Source of the DNA: an uncultured Clostridia bacterium
Lineage (GTDB): Bacteria > Bacillota > Clostridia > Christensenellales > UBA1242
Direction: 5' to 3'
DNA: 60,662 nt
NCBI GenBank assembly: GCA_944383245.1
Contig: CALWOU010000005.1
Coordinates: 1 to 60,662 of the forward strand
The notes under the pieces are model-generated. The model had not been told where the DNA came from, did no database searches, and saw nothing but the letters and a program-made list of their open reading frames with translations. Every line of letters starts with the position of its first letter. The first letter of the stretch is position 1. A program made the translations under genes and the position numbers. This document shows positions 1-43,217 of this stretch, one piece after another.

Positions 1-846
1 TTAATTAGAGAAATAGCCTGCTTTTGGTTCGCCTTCTGCGGTGTAATAATATCTTATTGAGCCTGAAGATTTTTGCTCTTCGGTGAGTTCGTTATATGCT
101 GAAAAGCAGACGTTCACTTTATAATCCAAATTTTCTTCTGGTTTGCCGATATCTATAACAAAGCCGTTAGATAAGTTTAAAATCACGCGTTTGTACTCTT
201 CATCTAGTGAATAATCCACACCGAACTCTATGCTATCTATGACGTCAATCATATCTTGGCGAGATAGGTATTCAGCATAACCATTTCCGTCGACGTCGAA
301 CATTGCGTTTGAATATAGCGCGCCATACAAGTTGTTAATAACTTGGCGGTAGTATTCAGTTGATAAAAAGTCAGACACTACCGTGTTTGAAGTTATTCCT
401 AAATCGGACAAATTTAAATGAATTAAGTTATTTAGAGTTGCTTCTATATTTTCGTCAATGCCCGTTTCAAGAATTCTTAAAACTTTAAGTTCTTCATCTA
501 ATATGTAATACTTATTTTCATTTTGAACATAGAACATTTCAACACGAGAGCGCACGCGAATTTCAACCTTAATAACGCTCACAGTTTTGATTTGGATTAC
601 TTTAATATTTGGAAATTCTCGTTCGATGTTGTTTATAGCACTATCTTTATCAAGCATAAAAATTGAAGTGCCGTGCTTAAAACCTGCTGAGTTTATTATT
701 TCATCTGAATTGATTTCAATGTTTGCCTCGTTAGAAACAACCACAACCTCTTCTTGCCTTAAGCAAAAAACCAAACCAAAAAGGATTGCAATAATTGCAA
801 GTATTCCAATAACTATTGAAATTATCGCGATTTTTGTTTTTGACAT
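1..846 (-). CDS. ftsQ: Cell division protein FtsQ/DivIB (TM + POTRA domain)
   Basis: N-terminal TM helix, then a POTRA-like segment (EIINSAGFKHGTSIFMLD...IEREFPNIK...VEIRVRSR); last gene of the dcw cluster; SD AGGAG; start overlaps the murA 3' end. Confidence 0.8.
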   Translation of the reverse strand: MSKTKIAIISIVIGILAIIAILFGLVFCLRQEEVVVVSNEANIEINSDEIINSAGFKHGTSIFMLDKDSAINNIEREFPNIKVIQIKTVSVIKVEIRVRSRVEMFYVQNENKYYILDEELKVLRILETGIDENIEATLNNLIHLNLSDLGITSNTVVSDFLSTEYYRQVINNLYGALYSNAMFDVDGNGYAEYLSRQDMIDVIDSIEFGVDYSLDEEYKRVILNLSNGFVIDIGKPEENLDYKVNVCFSAYNELTEEQKSSGSIRYYYTAEGEPKAGYFSN

Positions 847-2108
847 ACTCTCCTTATATTCGCGCCAAGAGATGAAAGCATATGTTCGATATGGTCATAA
901 CCTCTATCTATAAAATGGACGTCACTAATTATAGTTTTTCCTTTTGCTATAAGCCCTGCTAACACCAACCCCGCTCCACCGCGCAAGTCGGTTGCTTTAA
1001 CTGTTCGCCCGCGAGGAGCCGATAAACCGCGAACAAGTGCAGTATGTGCGTTGGATAAACTAATGTTCGCGCCCATCCTATTCAATTCTTTCGCAATTAA
1101 AAATCTATTTTCGAACACTAATTCTTGCACTTTGCTGTTCCCCTCGGCAACGCACAAAAGTGGCAAAATTATAGATTGCAAGTCGGTTGGAAATTTTGGA
1201 AAATACCCCGTTACAATATTGATATTTTTTAGTTCGCCCTCTCTTGACACTTTTATTATATCATTTTCCAAATCTATTTTGCAACCTATTGAGGACAAAA
1301 TTTTTATTAAACTTTCATTTTCTTTTGCGCACCCGTCAATAATTGTAACTTTTCCTTTAGTTAATGCGGTTGCAATCATAATTGTACCCGAAACTATTCT
1401 ATCTTTAATCGGCGTATATTGTATGCCAAACAAACTATCTACCCCATAAATAGTTATTTTCTTCGTGCCTGCACCCACAATTTTTGCACCCATAGAATTT
1501 AGAAAATTACATAAATCCACAACCTCTGGCTCACGCGCGGGATTAAAAATTTCAGTTTTTCCCTTTAATTTTACGGCAAATTGAACAATATTTTCAGTTG
1601 CACCAACACTTGGAATTTTTAGTTTAATTTTGTTTGGTTTTGCGCTCCTACCATCAAAGAAAAAACCGCTTTCATCTTCTATAACTTTAACATTTAATTT
1701 TTTTAATGCGTCAATATGCAAATCAATCGGTCTATTCCCTATTTTGCAACCACCCGGAAAAGTTATATGTGCCTCTTTAAATCTTGAAAGTAGTGCGCCA
1801 AGTAAAAATATGGATGAACGCATAGTTTTCGACAAATTTTCATCAACTTGAAAACGTGAAATTTTGCTTGAATCTAACAAAAGCGAATCTTTTTTCTTTG
1901 TTACTTTCACTCCAAGTTTACGTAAAATTTTTTTCATATTTTTTACGTCTAAAATGTCTGGCACTTGACGAATTTCAACAACTCCCTCTGTCATTATGCT
2001 CGCACTCATAATTGGCAAAACCGCATTTTTGCTCGTCTGATTTTTGAATGTGCCAAATAGTCTATTTCCGCCAACAATTTCTAATTTATCATTAAAACAA
2101 TAATTCAT
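822..2108 (-). CDS. murA: UDP-N-acetylglucosamine 1-carboxyvinyltransferase
   Basis: SKNAVLP, MRSSIFLLG, PGGCKIGNRP (catalytic Cys), SVGATEN, FPTDLQ, DLRGGA, DRGY motifs. Confidence 0.97.
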   Translation of the reverse strand: MNYCFNDKLEIVGGNRLFGTFKNQTSKNAVLPIMSASIMTEGVVEIRQVPDILDVKNMKKILRKLGVKVTKKKDSLLLDSSKISRFQVDENLSKTMRSSIFLLGALLSRFKEAHITFPGGCKIGNRPIDLHIDALKKLNVKVIEDESGFFFDGRSAKPNKIKLKIPSVGATENIVQFAVKLKGKTEIFNPAREPEVVDLCNFLNSMGAKIVGAGTKKITIYGVDSLFGIQYTPIKDRIVSGTIMIATALTKGKVTIIDGCAKENESLIKILSSIGCKIDLENDIIKVSREGELKNINIVTGYFPKFPTDLQSIILPLLCVAEGNSKVQELVFENRFLIAKELNRMGANISLSNAHTALVRGLSAPRGRTVKATDLRGGAGLVLAGLIAKGKTIISDVHFIDRGYDHIEHMLSSLGANIRRVCQKQKSR

Positions 2109-2113
2109 ATATA

Positions 2114-2141
2114 ATTATATGAAAATAAGTCTTTATTTAAC
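2114..2141 (-). promoter_or_regulatory. SigmaE-like promoter of murA, leaderless geometry
   Basis: GTTAAAT-N14-ATATAAT (CATATAAT); only 5 nt between the -10 element and the ATG; no SD. Confidence 0.5.
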
Positions 2142-3311
2142 CACATTTAATTTTTGTTTTAATTTAAACTTAAAATTGTGTTTTGATTCTTTTATTTCGT
2201 TTATTCCTTGGCTTATTTCTTTTGATGTTTGTTTATCTACGTTTATCACAACTCCAATTGCAGACATAAACACAAGCAGTGATGTGCTTCCTGCGCTAAT
2301 AAATGGAAGTGGAAGTCCTGTTGGAGGAATTGAACCTGTTACAACTGCAATATTTAGTATCACCTGAATACTAATAATTGCGCCAATACCAAAGCAAAGG
2401 AAAGCGGAAAATTTATTGTTTGCGCGCATTCCAACTTTAAAAATTGTAACAATTAAAATTGCAAACAATATCATAAGAATTAAGCAACCGATAAAACCTA
2501 ATTCTTCTGCTATGATTGAGAAAATGAAGTCGGATTCGCAAAACGGCAAGAAAAGTTCTGCTTGGCGCGAATTAAATAGACCCACTCCCCAAAGTCCGCC
2601 ACTACCTATTGCGTAAAGAGATTGTATTAATTGGTAGCCCTCGTCTAGCGGGTTTGCCCAAGGATTTAAAAACGCCACAATTCTACTTAGTCTATATGGT
2701 TCCATTAAGATTAGTACAACCACCAAAAGCACTGCTGGAATTACTAGTATTCCAAACACTTTCAATCTCATTCCGCCTATAAACATCATAAAAATTAGTG
2801 TGAAAGCAACGCACATTGTGATTGACATATTTGGTTCTAACATAATAAGAACGCAGTAAATTCCGCCAAGAGATAAAGTGATTAGGATATGTTTGAATTT
2901 TGATAGTTTGTCGCCGTCTGACAGGTAACCCGCAAGAAAGAAAACTAAGCAAAATTTGCTTATTTCGCTAGGTTGCATTGTGAAACTACCTATTCCTATC
3001 CACCTTGTTGCACCATAACTTGATTTGCCAAGCCCTGGAATGAACACGAGTGCCAAAAATACAAGTCCAACTATGTAGAAAACCCAATAAAACTTTTTGT
3101 AAACCCTATTATTGATGAATTGGACTATAATCATACCAACTAGTCCAATAATTACACCCGTGATTTGCTTTTTTAGATAGAAAAATTGGTCGTTATATTG
3201 CACAGTTGCCGAATATTTGCTCGCGCTATACACCATAACGCAACCAAAAATTGTGAGTATCAGTGTAAGAACAACTAAGATTATACTATTTTTTCGCGCA
3301 TTCAGTTTCAT
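2133..3311 (-). CDS. spoVE: SEDS family peptidoglycan glycosyltransferase SpoVE/FtsW
   Basis: About 10 TM helices; MVYSAS, GATRWI, QPSEISK, GYQLIQSLYAIGSGG, SDFIFSIIAEELG, TGLPLPFISAGSTS motifs; dcw context with spoVD. Confidence 0.9.
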   Translation of the reverse strand: MKLNARKNSIILVVLTLILTIFGCVMVYSASKYSATVQYNDQFFYLKKQITGVIIGLVGMIIVQFINNRVYKKFYWVFYIVGLVFLALVFIPGLGKSSYGATRWIGIGSFTMQPSEISKFCLVFFLAGYLSDGDKLSKFKHILITLSLGGIYCVLIMLEPNMSITMCVAFTLIFMMFIGGMRLKVFGILVIPAVLLVVVLILMEPYRLSRIVAFLNPWANPLDEGYQLIQSLYAIGSGGLWGVGLFNSRQAELFLPFCESDFIFSIIAEELGFIGCLILMILFAILIVTIFKVGMRANNKFSAFLCFGIGAIISIQVILNIAVVTGSIPPTGLPLPFISAGSTSLLVFMSAIGVVINVDKQTSKEISQGINEIKESKHNFKFKLKQKLNVVK

Positions 3312-4596
3312 AATTCATCACCAATTCATTAAAATGTTTTCCGCGCTCAATGTAGTTTGAATATTGGTCGTAACTTGCAGTGGCTGGGCTTAATAATATC
3401 GTGTCTCCCGCTAGAGCGTGAGTTGTGGCAATATTGAATGCTTCTTTTAAATCGACGCAAGTAGAATAATCAAATTTGTTATTGTTTGCTTTTTCTAAAT
3501 TTTCTGCAATCTCACCATAAAGTATTACGAACTTTACTCGCTTTGATAATTTATTAAATAATTCATCAAAATTTAACATTTTATTAGACCCGCCAAGTAA
3601 AATTATTATCGCGCCTTTTGTTGATTCGACGGATGCCAAAGTTGAGGCGATATTTGTTGATTTGCTATCGTTAATAAATTTAATTTGATTGATAACTCCA
3701 ACATTTTCAATTCTAAAATGCTCTGGCGTGTAGGATAAAATTGCCTGCCTAATAAGTTCGGGACGAACCTTATAAATATATCCAAAACAAATTGCGCACA
3801 TAATGTTTGAAATGTTGTGTTTGCCCGTTAATTTTAATTCATTAATGTTTGCAATTTTATGCTCGTGAAGATATATTGCACCGTCTTTTAAATAAACGTC
3901 GGCTGTGTGTTTTTGTGAATATGTAATTTTTAGTGTGTCGCTAGTTAGGTGAATATTGTCGTCAAGATTGATTACGGCATAATCGTTTGACTTTAAATTT
4001 TTGAATATACTTTTTTTTAGTGCAGTGTAATTTTCCATTGTTTTATGGCGAATGAGGTGGTCGGGAGATATGTTTAAAATTGTTGCAACGTGCGGAGAAA
4101 ATTTGTTTGCGTGCTCTAGCATAAACGAACTTACTTCTATCACTTTAATGTAGTTTTTCTTTTCAAGAACTGCGCGAGAAAGCGGATAACCAATGTTCCC
4201 GCACGCAACTGCTTTATATTTTTTATTCAAAATATCTGTAACCAATTCTGTGGTGGTGGTTTTTCCATTTGTACCCGTGATTGCTACATAATTTTTGCAA
4301 AACATTGAGGCGAATTCAAGTTCGCTCATAATGGTTATGTTGCGCTCGTTTGCTTTAACTAAAAATTCATTATCAAGCGGGATTGATGGAGACACGATTA
4401 TCAAATCAAACTGCTCAATTAAATTTTCGTTTAACGAATTTAGCATAAAACAATTTTTTATAGTTTTAGTTTTTAAAATTTCAAAATTATCGTCATACAA
4501 AAAAACATTAGCACGCTTATTTATCAACAATCTACTCGCCCATTCTCCCGACATCGATAACCCGTAAACTAAAACATTTAGATTTTTAAACTTCAT
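3286..4596 (-). CDS. murD: UDP-N-acetylmuramoyl-L-alanine--D-glutamate ligase
   Basis: AITGTNGKTTT, EVSSF, NISPDHL.RH, NDSKSTN, LSPATASYDQY motifs. Confidence 0.97.
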   Translation of the reverse strand: MKFKNLNVLVYGLSMSGEWASRLLINKRANVFLYDDNFEILKTKTIKNCFMLNSLNENLIEQFDLIIVSPSIPLDNEFLVKANERNITIMSELEFASMFCKNYVAITGTNGKTTTTELVTDILNKKYKAVACGNIGYPLSRAVLEKKNYIKVIEVSSFMLEHANKFSPHVATILNISPDHLIRHKTMENYTALKKSIFKNLKSNDYAVINLDDNIHLTSDTLKITYSQKHTADVYLKDGAIYLHEHKIANINELKLTGKHNISNIMCAICFGYIYKVRPELIRQAILSYTPEHFRIENVGVINQIKFINDSKSTNIASTLASVESTKGAIIILLGGSNKMLNFDELFNKLSKRVKFVILYGEIAENLEKANNNKFDYSTCVDLKEAFNIATTHALAGDTILLSPATASYDQYSNYIERGKHFNELVMNYETECAKK

Positions 4597-4616
4597 TTTA
4601 TATTCCTTTTAACAAA

Positions 4617-4643
4617 ACAATATGAAAATTTTTTTGAATATAC
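4617..4643 (-). promoter_or_regulatory. SigmaE-like promoter of murD-spoVE
   Basis: GTATATT-N13-ATATTGT (CATATTGT); no TTG-type -35 at sigmaA spacing. Confidence 0.4.
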
Positions 4644-4838
4644 TTAAATTTTTTGCGCATATAATTTTAATAATTTAATAAAAATTTTTAAAATTTTTCA
4701 TTTTTTTACGTTTTTTTGCAATTTTTTTACGATTTTTGCAATATTTTTAAAAATTTATTCAATTTTTCTATTTTTTAATTTTCAAAATACTTCAAAAATT
4801 TTTTATATAAATACACTATTTTTTTAAACATAAATTTA

Positions 4839-5837
4839 TTACAGCAAATACAAAATAATACAAATTACACCAATCGTGGCTGTGATGGACGAATAGATTG
4901 CAACTATTTTTGGTTCACTTAATCCGCACATTTGAAGGTGATGATGGAATGGTGCCATTTTAAAAACTCGCTTTCTTTTTATTTTGAAAACTGCCACTTG
5001 CAAAATTACAGATATAGCACTAAACACAAAGCAAAATCCAAGAATAGGAATTATAAGTTCCATTCCAAGAATACACGCGCTTGCACCAACGTAACCTCCA
5101 AGCATAAGCGAACCAACATCTCCCATAAAGATTGATGCCTTACTTGTGTTAAACATTAAAAATCCTAGTATTGCTCCAACAAACAGCATAGACAAAATGT
5201 TTATGTTTTGAATGTCTGTTAAAATTTGACTTGTGACACCCGCATTATACAAATTTATTGAAACTATGCTAGTGATTATTGTGAAAAAAATTAGATAAAA
5301 TAAACTTACATTTCCAGCAAGCCCGTCCAGCCCGTCGGTTAAATTTACACTATTAGTTGTAGCAAGTAAAACAAAAATTACAATTGGAATAATGAAAAAT
5401 TTTGTGTCAATCGCGGTGTCTAAAAAAGGAATAAATATTTCGCCCTGAACACTTGATAAAAAGTAAACAAACACTGCAAAAATTATTGATATGCCAAGTT
5501 GTCCAATAATCTTTTGATATGGTCTAAGACCCAAGTTTTGCTTATATTTAATTTTTAGATAATCATCCATTAGTCCTAGCACACCAAAGAATATGCTAAC
5601 TAAAAGAGTCATAAACCAACGCGTGTCAAAGCGCAAAAACACAAACGCAAGAAATAGTGTAGTTAATATGAATACTACACCACCCATAGTTAATGTTCCG
5701 TTTTTATCTTTATGATTTTCAACATAGCCAAGTATGGTTTGACTTGCGTGTTTTTTCTTAAAATAATGAATTATAAGTGGCATTAAAACAAGCGAAAGTG
5801 CAAACGAACTTAAAAATGCTAGCAATATTTTTATCAT
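4839..5837 (-). CDS. mraY: Phospho-N-acetylmuramoyl-pentapeptide transferase
   Basis: TLTMGG, GLMDDYLK, NSVNLTDGLDGL, FMGDVGS, MAPFHHH motifs; multi-TM. Confidence 0.97.
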   Translation of the reverse strand: MIKILLAFLSSFALSLVLMPLIIHYFKKKHASQTILGYVENHKDKNGTLTMGGVVFILTTLFLAFVFLRFDTRWFMTLLVSIFFGVLGLMDDYLKIKYKQNLGLRPYQKIIGQLGISIIFAVFVYFLSSVQGEIFIPFLDTAIDTKFFIIPIVIFVLLATTNSVNLTDGLDGLAGNVSLFYLIFFTIITSIVSINLYNAGVTSQILTDIQNINILSMLFVGAILGFLMFNTSKASIFMGDVGSLMLGGYVGASACILGMELIIPILGFCFVFSAISVILQVAVFKIKRKRVFKMAPFHHHLQMCGLSEPKIVAIYSSITATIGVICIILYLL

Positions 5838-7291
5838 GCTTTTATTTTGCCTTTTAAACTATATTTATTGCAATTATTGACAACTTCAAAATCGCTATAC
5901 GGGAATTTCACTCCTTTAATTTCTTGATAGTTTTCTGCACCCTTTCCAAGGATAGCGACTACATCATTTTCGTTTGCAATTTGCATTGCATATTCAATTG
6001 CAGATTTTCTATCGGTAATTCTAACAAGTTTTTCGCTTACCACTCCGCGCACAATATCATCAATAATTAGTTCGGGATTTTCATATCTAGGATTATCTGT
6101 TGTAACAATCACTAAATCGCTAAAATTTAGTGCCACGTCACACATCTCTCTTCTCTTAGTTTTATCCCTATTTCCGCCACAGCCAAACACTGTGATAATT
6201 TTCTTTTTAGCAAGAAGTTTAATTGCACCTAACACGTTTTTTATTCCGTCTGGCGTGTGCGCATAGTCAATGATTGCACTAAATTTATTGTTGCAATTTA
6301 TAACATTAAATCTGCCAGAAATGACAAACTCTGATTGTTTTATAACGCGCAAAATATCATAAACATTTATTCCTAGTTTTAATAATATTCCAATTGAAAG
6401 CATTATGTTTGAAATATTATATTCGCCTATTAAATTTGTTTTTGAATGATAAACTTTGCCTTTAATTGAAAAACTAAATTCAGTGCCGGACAGACTATAC
6501 TCGGTTGAAATTAGTTGTAAATCTGCGTCTTTTCCAATTTTACAAATTTCAATATTTGAATTTTTGGCAATATTTTGTGTGTTTTTACTATCGATATTTA
6601 TAACTCCTAACTTTGCGTGTTTGTAATCGAAAAGGCTTGCTTTACACTTTGTGTAGTTTTCCATATTGAGGAAAAAATCCAAATGGTCTTTAGTTATATT
6701 AGTTAGTCCAACCGCGTCAAAATATATGTTGTCAATTTTATTTAGCGCTATTGCGTGCGCGCTCACTTCCATAACGCAATACTCACAACCATTGTCTTCC
6801 ATATCTTTAATGAGTTTGTGCAAAACTATTGGGTCGGGAGTGGTTAAAGTTGGAGGAAGAAGTAAACTGCCTATGTATACCCCCTCCGTTCCAATCAATC
6901 CAACTTTTTTATTCAATGCGGTTAAAATGTTGCGAATAATCATCGTAGTTGTTGTTTTTCCGTTTGTTCCTGTTATACCTATAAACTTCATTTTAGATTT
7001 GTAAGTTCCATAAAAAGTTGAACATATTTGCGACATTGCAATTCTCACGTTTTCAACCAAAATCTGTGGCACGTCAACTTCTAAAAAACGTTCCACCACC
7101 AAACAAATTGCACCATTATTAATTGCTTGATAAGCATAGTTGTGACCGTCGTGTTTCATACCTTTTATGCAAAAATATAGCCCAGATTCCGTTTTTTCTT
7201 CGCTTGAACAAGTTAGCGAATCAATATCAATCTCGCGGTAGTTTTTAATCCCTATAAATTTTAGATTTGAGATTATTTCGTATAGTTTCAT
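5834..7291 (-). CDS. murE: UDP-N-acetylmuramoyl-L-alanyl-D-glutamate--2,6-diaminopimelate ligase
   Basis: GITGTNGKTT, TTPD, MEVSAH, DHLDF, DYAHTPDG, GCGGNRD, DNPR (meso-DAP-type motif), GKG motifs; 4-nt overlap with mraY. Confidence 0.97.
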   Translation of the reverse strand: MKLYEIISNLKFIGIKNYREIDIDSLTCSSEEKTESGLYFCIKGMKHDGHNYAYQAINNGAICLVVERFLEVDVPQILVENVRIAMSQICSTFYGTYKSKMKFIGITGTNGKTTTTMIIRNILTALNKKVGLIGTEGVYIGSLLLPPTLTTPDPIVLHKLIKDMEDNGCEYCVMEVSAHAIALNKIDNIYFDAVGLTNITKDHLDFFLNMENYTKCKASLFDYKHAKLGVINIDSKNTQNIAKNSNIEICKIGKDADLQLISTEYSLSGTEFSFSIKGKVYHSKTNLIGEYNISNIMLSIGILLKLGINVYDILRVIKQSEFVISGRFNVINCNNKFSAIIDYAHTPDGIKNVLGAIKLLAKKKIITVFGCGGNRDKTKRREMCDVALNFSDLVIVTTDNPRYENPELIIDDIVRGVVSEKLVRITDRKSAIEYAMQIANENDVVAILGKGAENYQEIKGVKFPYSDFEVVNNCNKYSLKGKIKA

Positions 7292-7342
7292 AATTCCCCC
7301 ACAATTTAGCTAAAATTGGTAAATAAACTTATTACTTCATTT

Positions 7343-7371
7343 AATATATCAGATAATTTTTCTTTTTTTAC
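7343..7371 (-). promoter_or_regulatory. Candidate promoter of murE-mraY (sigmaE-like, or extended -10 sigmaA)
   Basis: GTAAAAA-N15-ATATATT; also readable as TG-n-TATATT without a -35 element. Confidence 0.35.
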
Positions 7372-7398
7372 TTAGGGTATAAAATAAGACAAAATATT

Positions 7399-9303
7399 TC
7401 AATTTGTGATTAAATACGTCATTTCTCCTAAATAAAGCATTGTGCCAGCTATAGGGAGTTGGCTTAAAACATACTCGCCCTCATTTTCTATCACAGCATC
7501 TAGACCTAACTGCTTTAATTTGGCGCTTGCGTCTGCAAGAGTCATACCAATTAAGTTTGGCATTTCAATTGTCGGCTGACTTGTTAGTTGCGACTCGTCG
7601 TTTGGAGAAATCGCTTTAGTTTCAAAAATTCTAGTAAATATGCGTTGTCCAACTGGCTTTGCCACCACTCCACCATAGTATGCTCCCGCGCTTGGTTCGT
7701 TTACGCAGACAATTAAAATATACTCTGGATTGCTTGCTGGATAAGTGCCTATAAAACTTGAAATATATTTCCCACTTGCAATTTGACCATTTTCATCGTA
7801 TTTTTGCGCTGTCCCCGTCTTTCCGCCTATGTCGTAGCCCGCAACAAATGTCATATTGCCCTCGCTATTTATATTGTTTGCAAGCAATTTATTCACTGTT
7901 GAAATTGTGGATTCTTTTAAATCAATTTTTGTGGATGCAGATGAGTGTTTGTATAAAGTTGTGTCCTCTGCCACAATTTCTTCCACCAAATAAGGCGTTA
8001 AGTCTTTTCCTGAACAAATTTTTGCGTATACGTTAACAAGTTGAAGTTCAGTGACAGCGATTGCGTGCCCAAAACCAATGCGCGCCAAGTCTACAATTTT
8101 AACTTGGTCCTCACTCATCACAATTCCGCTAGACTCACTTGCAATATCCACTCCTGTTTTTTCGCCTAAACCAAATAAATTGAGATAGTCATAGTATTTT
8201 TCAATTCCAAGGCGCAAAGCGAGATTTACAAACACGCAGTTGCAACTCTTTTCAAATGCCTCGGATAAGGTTAAACTTCCGTGGCCCGTGCTTTTCCAAC
8301 ATTTTATAGTTTCGCCGTCAACCGTGGTTCTGCCCGAACAAAAGAAATGCTCGTCCTCACTCACTAACCCCTCATTTAACGCTGCGGCAAGAGTTACAAG
8401 TTTGAATGTACTACCTGGTTCGTAAACGTCAACTACGGTGGAATTTTTCGTCATAAGTTGAAGCGCGGAGATATCATCACGTGGAACATTATTTAGGTCG
8501 AAACTAGGTAGGCAACTCATCGCTTTTATTGCTCCTTTTTTTGCGTCGATTATTATTCCGCTAACACCGAGCGCTTTGTTTTCTAAATATGCAGTCATCA
8601 ACTCGCTTTCTAATATTGTTTGCATTTGAACGTCTATTGTGGTTGTTAAATTTGCGCCTGGCACACTTGGAATGTAGTAACTAAGGCTATTTTCGATTTC
8701 TTTTCCTTGTGCGTTGGTTTGAGTGAGGCTTTTTCCGTCCACACCTTTTAGGTATTTATCATAATACGCTTCAATTCCCGCTTGACCGATATTGTCGATT
8801 GTGCAATAGCCTAAAACTTGCGTTAGAAGTGATGAATATGGATAAACTCTCGCCACATTTTGTGATAAATACACACCGCTATATTCGGTTAGCGCCTTTG
8901 CTAAACTCTCTTCCACCTGCATTTTGATTAAGATTTCACTGAATGACTTGTTTGTTACTTTAGTGTATGCCGTTTCGTAATCTATATTTAAACTTTCACT
9001 TATTGCGCTTGCAAGACGGGCTGGTTCGGTTACATTTCTTGCGCGAACGTACACATCATATGTCGTGATTGTTGTGGCTAGGCTAACTCCGTTGCAATCT
9101 AATATTTCCCCGCGTCTACTTGCAAGTGGCAAATCTCTAAGCCACTCTTCACTTGCCAATATTTGAAGATGACGATTTGATATTATTTGCAAATAAAAAA
9201 CTCGTATGCTCAGCGCAAAAAATAAGGTTAAAATTATTAAAATTGTTGCTAAAAACCGCTTTTGAAGTGAATAAATGTTATAAAACGTTTTAAATTTTTT
9301 CAT
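7399..9303 (-). CDS. spoVD: Class B penicillin-binding protein SpoVD/FtsI with PASTA domain
   Basis: N-terminal TM; RGEILD, RVYP, GIEAYYD, EPGSTFK (SxxK), SCN (SxN), GKTGTAQ (KTG); C-terminal PASTA (MPNLIGMT). Confidence 0.9.
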   Translation of the reverse strand: MKKFKTFYNIYSLQKRFLATILIILTLFFALSIRVFYLQIISNRHLQILASEEWLRDLPLASRRGEILDCNGVSLATTITTYDVYVRARNVTEPARLASAISESLNIDYETAYTKVTNKSFSEILIKMQVEESLAKALTEYSGVYLSQNVARVYPYSSLLTQVLGYCTIDNIGQAGIEAYYDKYLKGVDGKSLTQTNAQGKEIENSLSYYIPSVPGANLTTTIDVQMQTILESELMTAYLENKALGVSGIIIDAKKGAIKAMSCLPSFDLNNVPRDDISALQLMTKNSTVVDVYEPGSTFKLVTLAAALNEGLVSEDEHFFCSGRTTVDGETIKCWKSTGHGSLTLSEAFEKSCNCVFVNLALRLGIEKYYDYLNLFGLGEKTGVDIASESSGIVMSEDQVKIVDLARIGFGHAIAVTELQLVNVYAKICSGKDLTPYLVEEIVAEDTTLYKHSSASTKIDLKESTISTVNKLLANNINSEGNMTFVAGYDIGGKTGTAQKYDENGQIASGKYISSFIGTYPASNPEYILIVCVNEPSAGAYYGGVVAKPVGQRIFTRIFETKAISPNDESQLTSQPTIEMPNLIGMTLADASAKLKQLGLDAVIENEGEYVLSQLPIAGTMLYLGEMTYLITN

Positions 9304-9308
9304 AACTA

Positions 9309-9336
9309 ATTATATTTAAAACTAAACCTAATTAGA
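9309..9336 (-). promoter_or_regulatory. SigmaE-like promoter of spoVD, leaderless geometry
   Basis: TCTAATT-N14-ATATAAT, then 5 nt and the ATG; no SD; spoVD is sigmaE-dependent in B. subtilis. Confidence 0.55.
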
Positions 9337-9362
9337 AGATTTTTTATTATATTTAAATGCAA

Positions 9363-9400
9363 ATAAAAAACTGAAATTTTTATTAATTTCAGTTTTTTAT
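9363..9400 (-). terminator. Intrinsic terminator after the giant-protein gene
   Basis: Inverted repeat ATAAAAAACTGAAATT...AATTTCAGTTTTTTAT with T tracts on both strands. Confidence 0.75.
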
Positions 9401-27273: not shown

Positions 27274-28098
27274 ATGAAAAAAAATAGATATGAAAGTTAT
27301 TCAAAATATTCGTTTGATAGAAAAAATATTAATAAATCATACAGCGATAGCGAAAATGTGAATAGTTTAGCATTGAATTATTCATATAATTCTTCGTATT
27401 ACGTAAATAAAAATAAAAAACAAGTTAGCATTACAATTTTAATTTTTTTAATCATAATTCTGCTTGCTGTTGCTGTGTTTTTAATAGAGAAAAAAGAAAA
27501 GAAAACATATTTTTATTTTCTGCAAGCAAATGAATTTTTAAATTACAAAGATGCGAGCAATCTCGCTAATGAATTACAATCAAAGCAGGGCGCAGGATAT
27601 ATTTATTATGACGGAAGTTATCACGTGATAATTAGTTTTTATGCCACAATTGAGGAAGCAGAAAGTGTTTTAGAAAATATAAAAAATGAGTATACTAATG
27701 CAAAAATTTTTGATATTTCAGCCCAACAATTTATGGAAAATTCACGTTACACAAATGAAGAAAATGAGCAAATAAAAAATATGATTTTAACGAATGAAAA
27801 CTTAATAAATCAAACGTACAATCAAATTTTATCGTATGATAAAGATGAAATTTCTAAAGATATTTTAGAAGTAAATATGAAAAATATTTCGGATGAATAT
27901 GCTAAAAGTTTTGAAAATTTTAAAAAAATTTTAAAAAATAACAAAAATTACGCAATTTTTTTAAAAAAATTGACAAAAATCGATGAAAATTTTAAAAATT
28001 TATATAATTATGCGAAAAATGGTTTTGAAGATTATCAATTAAAATATGAGTTAGTAAATATAGTTTCTTGTCACGCAATGTTTTTATCTAGTTTATAA
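27274..28098 (+). CDS. Membrane-anchored protein with SPOR-like domain (probably sporulation-related)
   Basis: Single TM near aa 50-70, then a SPOR-like pattern (FLQANEF...A...ANELQSKQGAGYIY...YHVIISFYAT.EEA) and a helical C-terminus. Confidence 0.6.
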   Translation: MKKNRYESYSKYSFDRKNINKSYSDSENVNSLALNYSYNSSYYVNKNKKQVSITILIFLIIILLAVAVFLIEKKEKKTYFYFLQANEFLNYKDASNLANELQSKQGAGYIYYDGSYHVIISFYATIEEAESVLENIKNEYTNAKIFDISAQQFMENSRYTNEENEQIKNMILTNENLINQTYNQILSYDKDEISKDILEVNMKNISDEYAKSFENFKKILKNNKNYAIFLKKLTKIDENFKNLYNYAKNGFEDYQLKYELVNIVSCHAMFLSSL

Positions 28099-28247: not shown

Positions 28248-28667
28248 TTACTTTTTAATATTGCTATTGTTTTCATTATTATTTAACTTTTCTTCTTTTT
28301 CCTTTTTATGATTTTTAATCATCACCACCAACTGCCAAATAGCAAGTCCAATTAAAAAGAGAGCAAATAACTTTTTTAGTACTCCACTTGAAATATGGTT
28401 TGCAACAAGTGCACCAACTAAACTAAAAATGCTTCCAACAAGCGCAAGTAACCAGGTTTGTTTAAATGCCACTAAATGATTTTTTGCGTGTATTATAAGT
28501 GCCACCACACTCATTGGTAAAAATGCGATTAAATTTATTCCTTGCGCTTGAAGTTGTTCGTACGATAGAAAAATAGTAAGGATTGGTATTGTGAGTGTTC
28601 CACCTCCCATTCCCATTCCACCAACTATTCCTCCGATAACTCCTGCTAAAACTTCTAAAAATATCAT
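28248..28667 (-). CDS. TauE/SafE (TSUP) family half-size membrane protein
   Basis: GGIVGGMGMGGGTLTIPIL, QAQGINL motifs; 4 TM helices. Confidence 0.85.
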   Translation of the reverse strand: MIFLEVLAGVIGGIVGGMGMGGGTLTIPILTIFLSYEQLQAQGINLIAFLPMSVVALIIHAKNHLVAFKQTWLLALVGSIFSLVGALVANHISSGVLKKLFALFLIGLAIWQLVVMIKNHKKEKEEKLNNNENNSNIKK

Positions 28668-28671
28668 ATTC

Positions 28672-29034
28672 TCACCAAATTAACATTCCTATTCCGCCTA
28701 AAAACATAAAGAAAATAAATATACCTTTTACGACCTTATTGTTTAGTTTATTTAGTAATGTAGCGCCGACAACTCCGCCTAAAATAATCCCTACGATTAC
28801 CGGCCAACCTGACTTAAAGTCTATTGAGTTGTAGCACATATATACTATCGTGCTAACCAAACTAATTGGTAGTATCACAAATAGTGCGGTTGCTTGTGCC
28901 TTTTTTTGCTCCATACCAAACAATTTGTTTAGCAGTGGCACAACAACCATTCCTCCTCCGCCACCAAAAAAGCCGTTTATTATACCGATCAGCGCCCCGA
29001 ATAAGACAATGTGCAACTTTTTCACTTTTTTCAT
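28672..29034 (-). CDS. TauE/SafE (TSUP) family half-size membrane protein
   Basis: GIINGFFGGGGGMVVVPLL, KAQATAL motifs; no SD; AATAAT lies 6 nt before the ATG. Confidence 0.85.
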   Translation of the reverse strand: MKKVKKLHIVLFGALIGIINGFFGGGGGMVVVPLLNKLFGMEQKKAQATALFVILPISLVSTIVYMCYNSIDFKSGWPVIVGIILGGVVGATLLNKLNNKVVKGIFIFFMFLGGIGMLIW

Positions 29035-32998: not shown

Positions 32999-34516
32999 AT
33001 GAAATCATTATTTAAAGCAGTTGCTATTGTGAGCATTTTTTCAATAATCACGCGTTTGCTTGGATTTTTCTTTCGCATATTTTTATCTAGAAAACTTGGT
33101 GCTGAGGGTTTAGGGCTTTTTCAAATGGCAACAAGTGTGCTGGGAATATTTATGACGGTGATTTCTAGTGGACTACCTCTTACCACTGCTAAACTAGTGT
33201 CTAAATACGAAGTGAATAACGAATTAAAAAGGCGAAATCAAGTTGTCACTTCTGCGCTAATTATTGCTTTATCTATTGCAGTCATATGTTCGCTGATTAT
33301 ATTGCTATTAAAAAAAGTTTGGGGAATAATTTTAACTGACAATAGAGCGGTTGAACTTCTTATAATTTTAATTCCATCCATTATATTTAGTGCGGTTTAT
33401 GCCATTTTCCGCGGTGCGCTTTGGGGTCAAAACGATTATTTTAGTTGTGGATTGACCGAACTTATTGAACAAATTGTGAGATTTGCATTAACTTTCATTA
33501 TGTTATTTACAATAACTGATATGTTCGAAGCAACTAGAAATTCGGCTATTGCATTCAATATTACCTGCCTTGTGTCTGCTATTATCACAATGATTATCTA
33601 CCTTAGGCGCGGAAAACTTAAATTTTCGCGTGCAGAATTTAGACCCGTACTTAAAAGCGCAATGCCAATTACCGGTGTGAGGTTAGCAAATTCGCTTGTG
33701 CAACCTCTTACTACCCTAATTATTCCTAATATGCTTATTATGATTGGATATTCAGCAAGTGAGGCAGTGGCTAGTTTTGGTGTAATTATGGGGATGACTT
33801 TTCCTATGCTGTTTGTGCCTATGTCGGTGGTTGGAAGCATTAGTATGGTGCTTGTTCCGTCAATTAGTTCAATGCTAACTAAAAATCAGTACGACACCAT
33901 TCAAGGAAACATTACAAAATCTCTAGAAGTTTCAATTTTTATTAGTATGCTTTTCATTCCGCTTTACCTCTCGGTAGGTGATTTGATTGGATTGGTGCTA
34001 TATGATAACCAAATGTCTGGTATTTTACTTCAATTATCTGCTGTTTGTGTGTTACCTATCACTTTATGCAACCTCACTGGAAGCATTTTAAATGCACTGA
34101 GTTTGGAAGTGAAATCGTTTGTAAATTACATAATCGGCTCGGTTGTTCTGTTTGTAAGTTTAATTGCGCTCACCCCGCTTGTTGGAATCAATTCAATAAT
34201 TATAGCATTCTTCCTATCAATGGCAACAATCACTCTACTTAATTTAAGAATGATTAAAAAGAAATTGCCACATTTTGAATTTAATCTCATGCCAATACTT
34301 TCAAAATACACTATTGTTACAATCATTTCATGTTTAACAGGGCATTTTATTTCAAACATTTTGCTTCACTTTATTAACAATTTCTTCACTGCCATTATCG
34401 CTGGAGGAATTAGTATTGCAATCACGTTGGTGCTTTGCAAAGTGTTTAATCTATACGATTTAACAACATTGTTTTCACTTATAAAAAAGAAAAAACAATC
34501 CAAACAAAAAAACTAA
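32999..34516 (+). CDS. spoVB: SpoVB-like MOP superfamily lipid II flippase
   Basis: ITRLLGFFFRIFLSRKLGAEGLGLFQ, SGLP, EQIVR, GVIMGMTFP, LVPSIS motifs; about 14 TM helices. Confidence 0.85.
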   Translation: MKSLFKAVAIVSIFSIITRLLGFFFRIFLSRKLGAEGLGLFQMATSVLGIFMTVISSGLPLTTAKLVSKYEVNNELKRRNQVVTSALIIALSIAVICSLIILLLKKVWGIILTDNRAVELLIILIPSIIFSAVYAIFRGALWGQNDYFSCGLTELIEQIVRFALTFIMLFTITDMFEATRNSAIAFNITCLVSAIITMIIYLRRGKLKFSRAEFRPVLKSAMPITGVRLANSLVQPLTTLIIPNMLIMIGYSASEAVASFGVIMGMTFPMLFVPMSVVGSISMVLVPSISSMLTKNQYDTIQGNITKSLEVSIFISMLFIPLYLSVGDLIGLVLYDNQMSGILLQLSAVCVLPITLCNLTGSILNALSLEVKSFVNYIIGSVVLFVSLIALTPLVGINSIIIAFFLSMATITLLNLRMIKKKLPHFEFNLMPILSKYTIVTIISCLTGHFISNILLHFINNFFTAIIAGGISIAITLVLCKVFNLYDLTTLFSLIKKKKQSKQKN

Positions 34517-37295: not shown

Positions 37296-40124
37296 TTATT
37301 TTGATTTATCTCTTTCAAGGATTTTCTTTAAATACATTCCTGTGTAACTACCTTGAACTTGTGTGACCTCTTCTGGTGTGCCTGTTGCGACTATTTTTCC
37401 GCCACCTTCTCCGCCTTCTGGACCCATATCAATAATGTAATCAGCAGTTTTAACAATATCAAGGTTATGTTCTATCACAACAACTGTGTTTCCATTTCCA
37501 ACAAGACGTTGCAAAATATTTACTAATTTTTTAACGTCATATGAATGAAGTCCTGTGGTTGGTTCATCCAAAATATATACAGTGTTACCCGTATCTCTTC
37601 TAGTTAGTTCGCTTGCGAGTTTCAATCTTTGTGCCTCGCCTCCTGAAAGTGTGGTTGCGCTCTGACCTAATTTAATGTAACCTAATCCGACATCCACAAG
37701 AGTTTGCAAAATGTGTTTTATATTTGGAATTGCATCAAAAAACTCATATGCTTCATCGATTGTCATTTCAAGCACGTCATAAATTGATTTACCCTTATAT
37801 TTCACTTCCAAAATTTCGCGCGAATAACGTTTTCCGCCACACACTTCACACGGGACGAACACGTCCGCCATAAAATACATTCTAAGGCGCTTCACGCCAT
37901 CGCCCGCACACGCTTCACATCGCCCGCCAGAAACATTGAAACTAAAATGTGTTGAAGTTAGTCCGCGCTCTTTTGCACTTGGAGTGGAGGCAAAAAGTTC
38001 GCGAATTTTTGTAAACAAACCTGAATAGGTCGCTGGATTACTTCTTGGCGTTCGCCCGATTGGTGTTTGGTCGATTTGAATAACCTTATCTATATCTTCA
38101 ATTCCTAGAATTTCGCCTATGTTTCTATCTTTATCTCGTTTATTTAGTTTGTTGAATAGTGCGCGATAGAAAATATCGTTTACAAGGGTGGATTTTCCGC
38201 TCCCGCTAACTCCTGTAACGCAAGTTAAAACTCCGCGAGGAATAGCAACATCCAACCCTTCAATATTGTGTTCTTTGCAATCAAGCAGTCTGATATACCC
38301 TTTTTTAATTGGTCTACGAACGCTTGGCACTTCAATTTTCTCTTCGCCAGATAAGAATTTTCCCGTGATTGAACGAGGGCTAGCGATTATATCTTCAACA
38401 CTCCCTGTGGCTACCACCTCTCCACCGTGAACACCTGCTTTTGGACCGATATCCACGACGTAATCTGCCGAACGAATTGTGTCCTCATCGTGCTCAACAA
38501 CAATAAGAGTGTTGCCTAAATCACGAAGGCTTTTAAGAGTGTCTATCAACTTGTCGTTATCGCGTTGGTGTAGACCTATGCTAGGTTCGTCTAAAATATA
38601 TAGCACTCCACTAAGTCCGCTTCCGATTTGAGTGGCAAGCCTTATGCGTTGGCTCTCTCCACCAGATAGTGTTCCTGCGCGCCTTGATAGGTTCAAATAA
38701 GTTAGTCCAACATTTACAAGGAAACTTAGTCGCGACAAGATTTCATGCAAAATGCTTTCTGCTATCATTTGCTCTGTTTTTGTTAGTTTCAACTCTTTTA
38801 AAAACGCATATAATTTAATGATTGACATATCGCACAAGTCTGCAATATTCTTATTTTCAATCTTGATTGAAAGTGCGCTTGGATTGAGGCGCTTTCCTAA
38901 ACATTCCGGGCAAGTATCTTCACTCATAAGTTTATAAATTTCTTCTTTAACATACTCGCTCGTGCTTTCTTGAAACCTTCTAAGAAGGTCTGGAATAATT
39001 CCCATAAAAAGTGCATCTTTTTGCGTCAAATATTGATGAAGATTTGGTGCAATTTTATCTTTATCTCCCTTTTCGCCGTTTATAAGCGCCTCTCTACCCT
39101 CTTTACTTATTTTATAGTATGGAGTGTCGGCAGTGTAGCCATATTTTTTACCTAATTTTATAAGTGCTTTTTTAGTGAGCCCGGTTGCATCTATATTAAA
39201 TCCCATAACAGACAGCGCACCCTCGTTAATTGACAATCTATCGTTTTTGACAATGGCATTTTCACCTATTTTTATAACGTAACCAAGACCGCCACATTTA
39301 GGGCAAGCACCTGCGTGATTATTAAAACTAAATAGTGTTGGTTCAATATCTGGAATAGAAATTCCGCAATCCACACAACTATATTTCACACTATACAATT
39401 TATCTTCGCCATTTGTGTTTACAATCACGATGCCGTTTGCCATTTGCAAGCATTTATCAATAGACTCAGTTAAACGCGAAATAATTCCCTCTTTTTTTAC
39501 AATTCTATCCACAATAACATATAAATCGTGACGTTTATTTTTTTCAAGCACGATTGAATCATCTAGCGAATAGATTTGTTTATCTATCATAACGCGAACA
39601 AATCCGTCTTTTTTCAAGCCTTCAATGGTCTTTTCGTGCGTACCCTTTTGTGCGCGTATGATAGGTGCCATAATAAGCATTTTGGCGCCGTCCTCTGCCT
39701 CCATTACTCTATCAACTATTTGGTCCAAAGTTTGAACAGTGATAGGTTTTCCGCAATTTGGGCAGTATGGCTTTCCAATACGTGCAAAAAGTAGGCGCAA
39801 ATAATCGTAAATTTCAGTTATTGTGCCGACCGTTGAACGAGGATTATTATTTGTGCTTTTTTGGTCTATTGATATGGCAGGGCTCAGTCCATCAATACTT
39901 TCAACGTCTGGTTTTTGCATTTGACCTAAAAATTGTCGCGCATAACTAGACAAACTCTCCATATATCTTCGCTGACCTTCTGCAAAAATAGTGTCGAACG
40001 CAAGTGTTGATTTTCCGCAACCACTAACTCCTGAAAAAACAACTAATTTATTTTTTGGAATAACTAAATCAACATTTTTTAAATTGTTCTCTTTTGCTCC
40101 TTTAATTACTATATTTTCTAACAT
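37296..40124 (-). CDS. uvrA: Excinuclease ABC subunit A
   Basis: Two ABC domains (GVSGCGKS, LSGGESQR, GVSGSGKS, LSGGEAQR), Zn fingers, EGQRRYMESLSSYARQFLG. Confidence 0.98.
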   Translation of the reverse strand: MLENIVIKGAKENNLKNVDLVIPKNKLVVFSGVSGCGKSTLAFDTIFAEGQRRYMESLSSYARQFLGQMQKPDVESIDGLSPAISIDQKSTNNNPRSTVGTITEIYDYLRLLFARIGKPYCPNCGKPITVQTLDQIVDRVMEAEDGAKMLIMAPIIRAQKGTHEKTIEGLKKDGFVRVMIDKQIYSLDDSIVLEKNKRHDLYVIVDRIVKKEGIISRLTESIDKCLQMANGIVIVNTNGEDKLYSVKYSCVDCGISIPDIEPTLFSFNNHAGACPKCGGLGYVIKIGENAIVKNDRLSINEGALSVMGFNIDATGLTKKALIKLGKKYGYTADTPYYKISKEGREALINGEKGDKDKIAPNLHQYLTQKDALFMGIIPDLLRRFQESTSEYVKEEIYKLMSEDTCPECLGKRLNPSALSIKIENKNIADLCDMSIIKLYAFLKELKLTKTEQMIAESILHEILSRLSFLVNVGLTYLNLSRRAGTLSGGESQRIRLATQIGSGLSGVLYILDEPSIGLHQRDNDKLIDTLKSLRDLGNTLIVVEHDEDTIRSADYVVDIGPKAGVHGGEVVATGSVEDIIASPRSITGKFLSGEEKIEVPSVRRPIKKGYIRLLDCKEHNIEGLDVAIPRGVLTCVTGVSGSGKSTLVNDIFYRALFNKLNKRDKDRNIGEILGIEDIDKVIQIDQTPIGRTPRSNPATYSGLFTKIRELFASTPSAKERGLTSTHFSFNVSGGRCEACAGDGVKRLRMYFMADVFVPCEVCGGKRYSREILEVKYKGKSIYDVLEMTIDEAYEFFDAIPNIKHILQTLVDVGLGYIKLGQSATTLSGGEAQRLKLASELTRRDTGNTVYILDEPTTGLHSYDVKKLVNILQRLVGNGNTVVVIEHNLDIVKTADYIIDMGPEGGEGGGKIVATGTPEEVTQVQGSYTGMYLKKILERDKSK

Positions 40125-42848: not shown

Positions 42849-43217
42849 ATGCTAGACAAAAAATCTACAGCAGTTTTGAAAGCATTGAATAAATTAGCAA
42901 TAAATAGTGCGTATAAGGTTGTCACAACTGATGAAATTATATCTAATTTAACGCAAAAATCGCAGTTTGACACTGACTGTGTGAATGAAATAATGTCCTA
43001 TCTTGGAAAGCAAGAGTATATCAACATCAAATTTAGCGAGGAAAACACTTATTGCTATTCACTGCTTCCAAAAGCGAGAATATTATTAGAGCAAAGTGAT
43101 GGAAAGATTAAACAAACTAAACCTAATATGCCGTTTTTAAATTATGTTTATATTTTCATCGCGTCTTTTGTTGGAACTATGCTAGCGCTAATTATTTTCT
43201 TTTTAATAACGTTATAA
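42849..43217 (+). CDS. Hypothetical winged-helix-like protein with C-terminal TM (paralog A)
   Basis: Helix-helix-helix-beta-hairpin pattern (AVLKAL...DEII...IMSYL..QEYI...YCYSLLPKA); C-terminal TM. Confidence 0.7.
   Translation: MLDKKSTAVLKALNKLAINSAYKVVTTDEIISNLTQKSQFDTDCVNEIMSYLGKQEYINIKFSEENTYCYSLLPKARILLEQSDGKIKQTKPNMPFLNYVYIFIASFVGTMLALIIFFLITL

Follow-up and report, generated by a model that had tools for sequence, protein, structure and literature searches.

In Bacillus subtilis, the cluster of division and wall genes (dcw) holds spoVD and spoVE, which are read by σE inside the vegetative operon murE-mraY-murD-spoVE-murG-murB. This organism also has a separate division penicillin-binding protein (PBP), PBP2B, together with FtsW, RodA and several other PBPs. 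Here we describe the dcw cluster of an uncultured Clostridia bacterium of the GTDB family UBA1242. It occupies positions 1-9400, on the minus strand, of a stretch of 60,662 nucleotides (nt; contig CALWOU010000005.1 of assembly GCA_944383245.1), hereafter called the window. As in B. subtilis, a SpoVD-like PBP gene with a promoter of apparent mother-cell type precedes a murE operon with an apparently vegetative promoter, and sporulation-type promoters seem to be embedded in the wall-gene operon. Unlike in B. subtilis, the genome has no class B PBP besides the SpoVD-like one and no second SEDS protein. In addition, no σE promoter is seen before the SEDS gene, murG and murB are located elsewhere, and the promoters look leaderless.

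The cluster can also be compared with that of Clostridioides difficile. According to the account of Shrestha et al. (2023, PMC10693644), the dcw SEDS protein and class B PBP of C. difficile are SpoVE and SpoVD, and a class A PBP drives division. The present genome likewise has a SpoVE/SpoVD-like dcw pair, no extra FtsW/FtsI pair and an FtsQ-like gene in the cluster. From its gene content, a single class A PBP would be available for vegetative septal synthesis. In the same account, C. difficile keeps RodA-PBP2 and MreCD for elongation, whereas none of these was found here. Dual σK/σA promoters are described for C. difficile murE and glmS by Saujet et al. (2013, PMC3789822), who also describe σE and σK promoters as sharing their -10 element and differing at -35 (ATA versus AC). 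Our cluster shares with that description wall-precursor genes that appear to have mother-cell sigma promoters besides vegetative expression. It departs from it in that murE looks σA-only, and in that sporulation-type promoters are proposed at the PBP gene, murA, murG, glmM and the murB and murF operons, abutting the start codon.

The reading that we favour, with a little more than even confidence, is that the region is a dcw cluster read from two kinds of promoter, and that the wall is made both in growth and in sporulation. The SpoVD-like PBP gene stands behind a terminator; it would be read from a mother-cell (σE) promoter and would probably give a leaderless mRNA. Transcription of murE, mraY, murD and the SEDS gene would start at a σA-type promoter and very likely continue into murA, which would additionally have its own CATA-type (σE/K-like) -10 element. 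The FtsQ-like gene would be read from a σA promoter inside murA. Growing cells would thus draw their wall precursors from the σA promoter. For the making of septum and cortex, the sporulating mother cell would supply the PBP and additional MurA and, from other loci, additional MurG, GlmM and the MurB and MurF operons. With no second class B PBP in the genome, and with the SpoVD-like one likely to be sporulation-specific, polymerising the wall in growth would be left mainly to the single class A PBP. Gene identities and order, copy numbers, the conservation of the motifs and the existence of two promoter classes are direct observations; which sigma factor uses which promoter, the leaderless starts and the timing are inferences.

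The identity of the cluster is clear from its genes. Seven co-directional genes encode the class B PBP, MurE, MraY, MurD, the SEDS protein, MurA and the FtsQ-like protein, with gaps, in this order, of 107, -4, 242, -26, 24 and -25 nt. The order recurs in the majority of the 75 related loci compared, among them loci of Christensenellales whose contigs span several megabases. murF and murG are outside the cluster, on contigs C10 and C29 of the genome, respectively. The class B PBP (7399..9303, minus strand, as all features of the cluster) has SpoVD as its best NCBIfam match (TIGR02214, 523.3 bits, below the equivalog cut-off of 688), followed by PBP2/MrdA (328 bits) and FtsI (230 bits). murE (5834..7291) is above cut-off for NF001126 with 505.7 bits. 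It overlaps by 4 nt mraY (4839..5837), also identified with NCBIfam, and murD (3286..4596) matches TIGR01087 with 366 bits. The SEDS glycosyltransferase gene (SpoVE/FtsW; 2133..3311), which overlaps murD, scores 356.8 bits for FtsW (TIGR02614, above the cut-off of 337.5) and 359.2 bits for SpoVE (TIGR02615, below the cut-off of 448.8). murA (822..2108) is present in a single copy. The last open reading frame (ORF; 1..846) is kept after murA in relatives. It encodes an FtsQ/DivIB-like protein with a hydrophobic N-terminal membrane helix and a POTRA_1 domain at residues 39-99 (PF08478, 23.3 bits for a cut-off of 23 and thus marginal; E 7.7e-5).

Upstream of the PBP gene, an intrinsic terminator (9363..9400, minus strand) follows the gene of a 3623-residue surface protein. 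It has a folding energy of -15.5 kcal/mol (z -6.2), none of 200 shuffles folds as well, and it ends in a U run. Because this terminator intervenes, the PBP gene is isolated from upstream transcription, as the original prediction had proposed. Metatranscriptome contigs cover the FtsQ-like gene and the 3' part of murA, as well as the giant ORF, with only scattered pieces at 1500-9300. They come from three chicken or gut RNA runs of two studies and one probable DNA run and, being contigs, give no information on start sites or expression levels.

The assembly to which the window belongs, as contig 5, has a size of 1.17 Mb and a completeness of 95.6%. The closest named relatives belong to Candidatus Onthoplasma, with a PBP 88% identical to that of the window. 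A study of the family (PMC12306168) describes it as reduced and probably partner-dependent, and its sporulation genes as "quite unexpected". In the main text of that study the word "peptidoglycan" occurs twice, once about other lineages and once in a reference title. All 31 family genomes compared, which measure 0.8-1.3 Mb, have spoIVA. The present genome encodes RpoD and SigE-, SigF-, SigG-, SigK- and SigH-like factors, each named from its family best match and below the equivalog cut-off. These are the six σ70-family factors detected, all with sporulation or housekeeping best matches. Spo0A, SipL, YqfD, YunB, YlbJ, CwlD, an M50 protease and YmxH are also encoded; these names too are family best matches, several of them below curated cut-offs.

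Promoters of leaderless mRNAs, in which the -10 element is fixed a few bases before the start codon, are best known from Actinobacteria and Deinococcus. The present genome shows the same arrangement. In 47 of 673 ATG genes (about 7%), the distance from the end of a TAnAAT to the ATG is exactly 6 nt, and there is no Shine-Dalgarno sequence; neighbouring distances account for 2-8 genes. The gene set behind these counts is a crude call of 878 ORFs over 82% of the genome, using the first start codon of each. We take the 47 genes as leaderless because there is no room for a ribosome-binding site. To our knowledge, so large a class is unusual for Firmicutes. It is visible, for example, upstream of uvrA (window position 40124) and upstream of position 42849. 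Forty of the 47 carry either TTG at -35, with a 17-nt spacer, or a TG extension, the latter occurring in 28. The hexamer is preceded by GA or GT in 26 of the 47, by CA in one and by AA in none. Unlike in Actinobacteria and Deinococcus, we propose a second, sporulation-type class with a 5-nt spacing.

This second class was defined with spoIVA as reference. Out of 30 spoIVA upstream regions, 28 agree with KMATAWW-N14-CATAnnnT in at least 10 of its 12 positions, and the dinucleotide before TAnnnT is CA in 27 of these 28 and AA in one. With a σE position weight matrix (PWM) trained on spoIVA, 33 genes score at least 8.5 bits, among them sipL, yunB, yqfD, the M50 protease gene, sigK and cwlD; murG scores 11.5 and murA 9.3. 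Both this matrix and its σA counterpart were trained on sites picked by consensus, and their scores are therefore partly circular. In a few genes, an (A/C)ATAnnnT is separated from the ATG by 5 nt: cwlD (TCCTATT-N14-AATATATT-N5), ylbJ (TCATATT-N14-AATATTAT-N5), ymxH, a Ca-ATPase gene (C2:91798-94419), the PBP gene and murA. In other genera, cwlD orthologues keep a σE-type -35 element and have an AATA or CATA -10 at 5-6 nt, mostly 5. The Ca-ATPase gene has a TTCTAAT box identical to that of the PBP gene. Within the genus, its -35 reads TTCTAAT or TTCTATT, and its orthologues have canonical σE promoters, for instance GCATATC-N14-CATATCTT or GCATAAA-N14-CGTAAGAT. Calcium uptake for spores may thus be part of the mother-cell programme.

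The PBP promoter, TTCTAAT-N14-AATATAAT-N5-ATG (9309..9337), is not accompanied by a Shine-Dalgarno sequence and would give a leaderless mRNA. Its conservation was followed in 23 genomes, namely the window and 22 relatives. AATAnnnT is found 5 nt before the ATG in 16 of the 23, TCTAw at -35 in 20 and the 5-nt spacing in 19. AA precedes the hexamer. A TTG at -35 or a TG extension occurs in only one genome, and the distance to the ATG is not the 6 nt of the σA class, though a TAnnnT hexamer is present. Compared with the σE consensus KMATAWW-N14-CATAcAnT, TTCTAAT matches at 5 of 7 positions, the spacer is 14 nt, and AATATAAT lacks the C. A -10 starting with A, together with a TTCTAwT-like -35, recurs at cwlD, the Ca-ATPase gene and one spoIVA orthologue. 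All features that tell the two classes apart place the PBP promoter with the σE type, although its score with the spoIVA-trained matrix is low. We also considered TTCTAA as a Spo0A box and rejected this idea: the spoIIGA and spoIIAA boxes resemble TGCGACA and TTCGGCA, and the genome contains 315 copies of TTCTAAA.

The murE promoter is of another kind. It carries an extended -10 element TGATATATT (7343..7351), which reads TGnTAnATT in 24 of 24 genomes. Downstream comes a leader whose Shine-Dalgarno sequence is GGGGG. The third base of the element, between TG and the hexamer, varies (A in 14 genomes, C in 8, T in 2). Because the TG is invariant and this base is free, we assign the element to the σA type; σE promoters keep A at that position and have C, not G, in front of it. 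TG extension and TAnnnT hexamer are both present, with a weak -35 (GTnAAA). TAnATT-type hexamers are found in 11 of 117 σA-like sites. This promoter heads murE-mraY-murD-SEDS, and the operon ends 24 nt before murA. Upstream lies a conserved block, TTTTGTCTTATTTTA (7380..7394), with TTTG[TC]CT in 24 of 24 genomes; it is possibly the -35 of a second promoter or a regulator site. The full block, TTTTGTCTwATTTTG (24 of 24), resembles two direct half-sites 10 nt apart and may be a response-regulator site.

Further along the operon, no separate promoter was found for the SEDS gene. The space from mraY to murD measures only about 43 nt in most relatives and holds no conserved promoter. The window has an A-rich insert of 242 nt there (4597..4838), shared with its closest relative only, which contains tandem TTGCAAAAAnCGTAAAAAAA units and a σA-like TTTAAA-N17-TAAAAT at 4692..4664 (σA PWM 18.2). 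The murD element of the original prediction also falls in this insert. The tandem units are found at 4700-4760 on the minus strand, and similar TTGCAAAAAAC repeats occur upstream of rsmH on contig C12 (about 1950-2000). A search of the genome with the E. coli MraZ protein did not find mraZ. For the SEDS gene, no σE site was found inside murD in the window and 20 relatives, the best score being 2.3. By contrast with murE, the murA promoter, GGTTAAA-N14-CATATAAT (2114..2142), ends 5 nt before the ATG, has no Shine-Dalgarno sequence and shows a CATA-type -10. All 12 aligned genomes have a CATAnAnn at this 5-nt distance, and no conservation is seen at -35. The GGTTAAA box, the CA before the hexamer and the 5-nt spacing set it apart from the σA class, although its hexamer is TAnnnT, and we consider its -10 as probably σE/K-like. 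Finally, a strong σA-type promoter, TTGCAA-N18-TATAAT with TG (1255..1284), lies inside murA and faces the FtsQ-like gene. RNA contigs from two studies stop at 1222 and 1243 and a third stops at 1444, which hints only weakly at a start near this promoter.

Beyond the window too, wall genes of this lineage tend to carry what look like mother-cell-type promoters. For murG, a CATA -10 is found near the start in 25 of 30 genera (at 6 nt in 11 and at 5 nt in 3), with TTG at -35 in none of the 30 and ATA in 9. The glmM promoter reads CATAAATT-N6. The genes heading the murB and murF operons have TAATAAA-N14-AATATATT-N5 and GCAAAAT-N14-CATATAAT-N4, respectively, the latter with a σE PWM score of 15.7. 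Altogether, five wall transcription units are found among the 21 genes of the σE-like class (hypergeometric p = 1.6e-4, computed post hoc). For the class A PBP gene, only 6 of 21 N-termini could be aligned and nearby CATA words occur at about the chance rate. mreB has a strong σA promoter (PWM 16.7).

The wall inventory of the genome is small. murA, murB, murC, murD, murE, murF, murG, ddl and mraY are present in single copies, as are the genes of the SEDS protein, the class B PBP and the class A PBP, a divergent mreB (170 bits), ftsZ and ftsA. There are two Dac carboxypeptidases. Exactly one class B and one class A PBP are found in 30 of 31 family genomes, and the exception is 84% complete. 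Neither a second SEDS-class B PBP pair nor a second vegetative mur set was found in the genome. In Bacillus, mreB, minD, an M50 protease gene and rplU occur in the same order as here, together with mreC, mreD and minC. At C8:35353-39400, mreB, minD, the M50 protease gene, rplU and prp follow each other; mreC, mreD and minC are absent there, and no spoIVFA was seen at this locus. MreB is thus kept without its usual partners, and there is no recognisable elongasome. Sortase, LCP and NlpC/P60 proteins were not found in the 95.6%-complete genome, and SLH domains were not found outside contig C43. This contig of 3158 nt, which holds the genome's only SLH matches, has 57% GC versus about 31% elsewhere and is probably bin contamination.

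The original prediction had started from a looser element, (G/T)nnnAnn-N13-15-ATATnnT, upstream of the PBP gene, murE, murD and murA. The element is indeed present at all four. As a specific signal it does not hold, since 184 of 867 genes (21%) have a copy in the 110 nt upstream. The window has 259 copies, for 158.8 ± 17 in Markov resamples. In this form the pattern proves little, and it also matches aTATAAT. The proposal that the four genes have sporulation-type promoters can be kept for the PBP gene and murA. It is abandoned for murE, which has the σA extended -10, and for murD, where the element is not conserved. The accompanying caveat, that the elements of the PBP gene and murE could be of σA type, fits murE, while the PBP promoter groups rather with the σE type. 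A contrast had also been drawn with housekeeping genes bearing clear σA promoters. σA PWM scores agree for uvrA (25.6), the uvrB operon (17.5), rpoB (14.1) and two surface-protein genes (16.5 and 15.4), but not for valS (-2.9) and pepF (3.8).

Several observations weigh against dual control as we describe it. All sigma assignments are made from sequence, and the relatives used for conservation are kin rather than independent samples. On the σE PWM, the PBP promoter of the window scores 1.7 and those of relatives score from -20.6 to +7.9, compared with 14.2 ± 3.7 for the training sites. This promoter also holds a perfect σA -10, TATAAT, 17 nt from TTCTAA, which σA may use. Likelihood ratios between the two matrices span -14.5 to +17.8 for it, both matrices being biased by the choice of training sites. 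In other genera of the family, an ftsL-like ORF comes directly before the PBP gene, which there has a ribosome-binding site and lacks a separate promoter; the σE-type PBP promoter therefore appears limited to the Onthoplasma clade. The spacing of σE-type leaderless promoters is uneven, from 4 to 7 nt. At murE, the σA PWM score does not exceed 8.7, near the 95th percentile of random windows. The -10 of murE ends in ATT and in this resembles a σE -10, and both matrices score it low.

Some of these points would be accounted for if all promoters of the cluster were ordinary weak σA promoters, reduced to a -10 in AT-rich DNA, their likeness to σE promoters being coincidental. We regard this as unlikely, though it has to be taken seriously. 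The loose motif is common, as seen above, and the perfect TATAAT and low σE scores at the PBP gene fit this view. A scan for the σ70 consensus gives 43 sites for 42.6 in shuffles, and TTCTAww-N14-[AC]ATAnnnT is not enriched genome-wide (34 versus 36.6 ± 4.4 in shuffles, 7 of them upstream of genes). Coincidence does not, however, explain a non-consensus TCTAw box and a 5-nt spacing kept in most of the 23 genomes, or a dinucleotide, AA or CA, that precedes the hexamer in 1 of 47 σA-class promoters and in 28 of 28 σE promoters. Moreover, genuine sporulation genes (cwlD, ylbJ, ymxH) have promoters of the same build, and orthologues of the Ca-ATPase gene with the TTCTAAT box have canonical σE promoters. 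It is very unlikely, in our view, that the CATA/AATA wall promoters form a separate envelope regulon, under a regulator or a sigma factor other than σE/K that answers to growth rate or to stress on the wall and not to sporulation. In favour of this idea, the class is enriched in wall genes, the -35 elements of murA and murG are poorly conserved, and the block before the murE promoter looks like a direct repeat. Yet the six σ70-family factors all have sporulation or housekeeping best matches, no candidate regulator was identified, and the class also holds cwlD, ylbJ and ymxH.

The original prediction went further and speculated that the wall may be made mainly for spores. In its strict form, nearly all peptidoglycan synthesis would be developmental, the mur genes and PBPs being switched on by mother-cell sigma factors for the septum, the germ-cell wall and the cortex, and growing cells would be nearly or wholly without a wall and depend on surface proteins anchored in the membrane. 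We know of no wall-less spore-former, though no search was aimed at one. The σE/K-like promoters at the PBP gene, murA, murG, glmM and the murB and murF operons, and the five wall units in the class, are what this idea would lead one to expect. The inventory also agrees in part, with no second SEDS protein, class B PBP or mur set, no mreC or mreD at the syntenic place, no sortase, LCP or NlpC/P60 protein, and SLH only on the contaminant contig. On the other side, mreB with its strong σA promoter, the class A PBP, ftsZ, ftsA and the two Dac carboxypeptidases are all present. The σA signature of the murE operon promoter, with its TG in 24 of 24 genomes, argues against the idea. MurE, MraY and MurD made in growth would be purposeless without MurA, MurB, MurF and MurG; murA lies 24 nt behind the operon, and each CATA or AATA -10 contains a TAnnnT hexamer that σA could use weakly. 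The lack of a separate PBP promoter in other family genera is a further difficulty. A predicted dependence of the family on a partner organism (PMC12306168) speaks for the idea. Walled spore-formers show the same kind of promoter at wall genes, as described for C. difficile (PMC3789822). Because walled Bacillus and C. difficile carry such promoters too, the step from sporulation-type promoters to a wall made mainly for spores is not supported, and we judge this strict form decidedly improbable. A broader version is rather improbable as well. In that version, the only SEDS-class B PBP pair of UBA1242 would be a sporulation machine and most precursor units would be wired to mother-cell sigma factors through leaderless promoters. 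The bulk of the peptidoglycan would be developmental, and growing cells would have a thin wall made by the class A PBP, or none, under a coat of giant membrane-anchored proteins.

Other features of the window were noted. As originally described, the surface proteins have N-terminal hydrophobic anchors and no LPxTG motif; they have no Pfam domain. The original remark on spoVB likewise agrees with what we find: a gene of the MurJ/SpoVB family (Polysacc_synt; 32999-34516, plus strand) has GCATATA-N14-TATATATT 15 nt before its start, with a σE PWM score of 7.8. At 27274-28098 (plus strand), the gene of a 274-residue protein without family match is preceded by a σE-type promoter, TCATAAA-N14-AATAAAAT, 4 nt before the ATG (σE PWM 10.9), and is a candidate sporulation protein. 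Two adjacent ORFs, 28248-28667 and 28672-29034 (minus strand), are the halves of a split or interrupted gene of the TauE/SafE exporter family, with matches to positions 3-118 and 124-237 of the profile.

Returning to dual control, what is new here is the degree of reduction: one SEDS protein, one class B PBP with an apparent σE promoter, one class A PBP and no MreCD. This reduction points to growth on the class A PBP alone. Should the sigma assignments fail, the cluster would be an ordinary dcw operon in AT-rich DNA. If they hold, a rule for the lineage would follow, with TTG and/or TG and 6 nt to the ATG for σA promoters, and CA or AA before the hexamer and mostly 5 nt to the ATG for the σE type. 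Such a rule could serve to read sporulation regulons in uncultured genomes. The family would then also be a minimal case for growth and division on one class A PBP, without active FtsW-FtsI or RodA-PBP2, and for how a 1-Mb genome keeps endospore formation.

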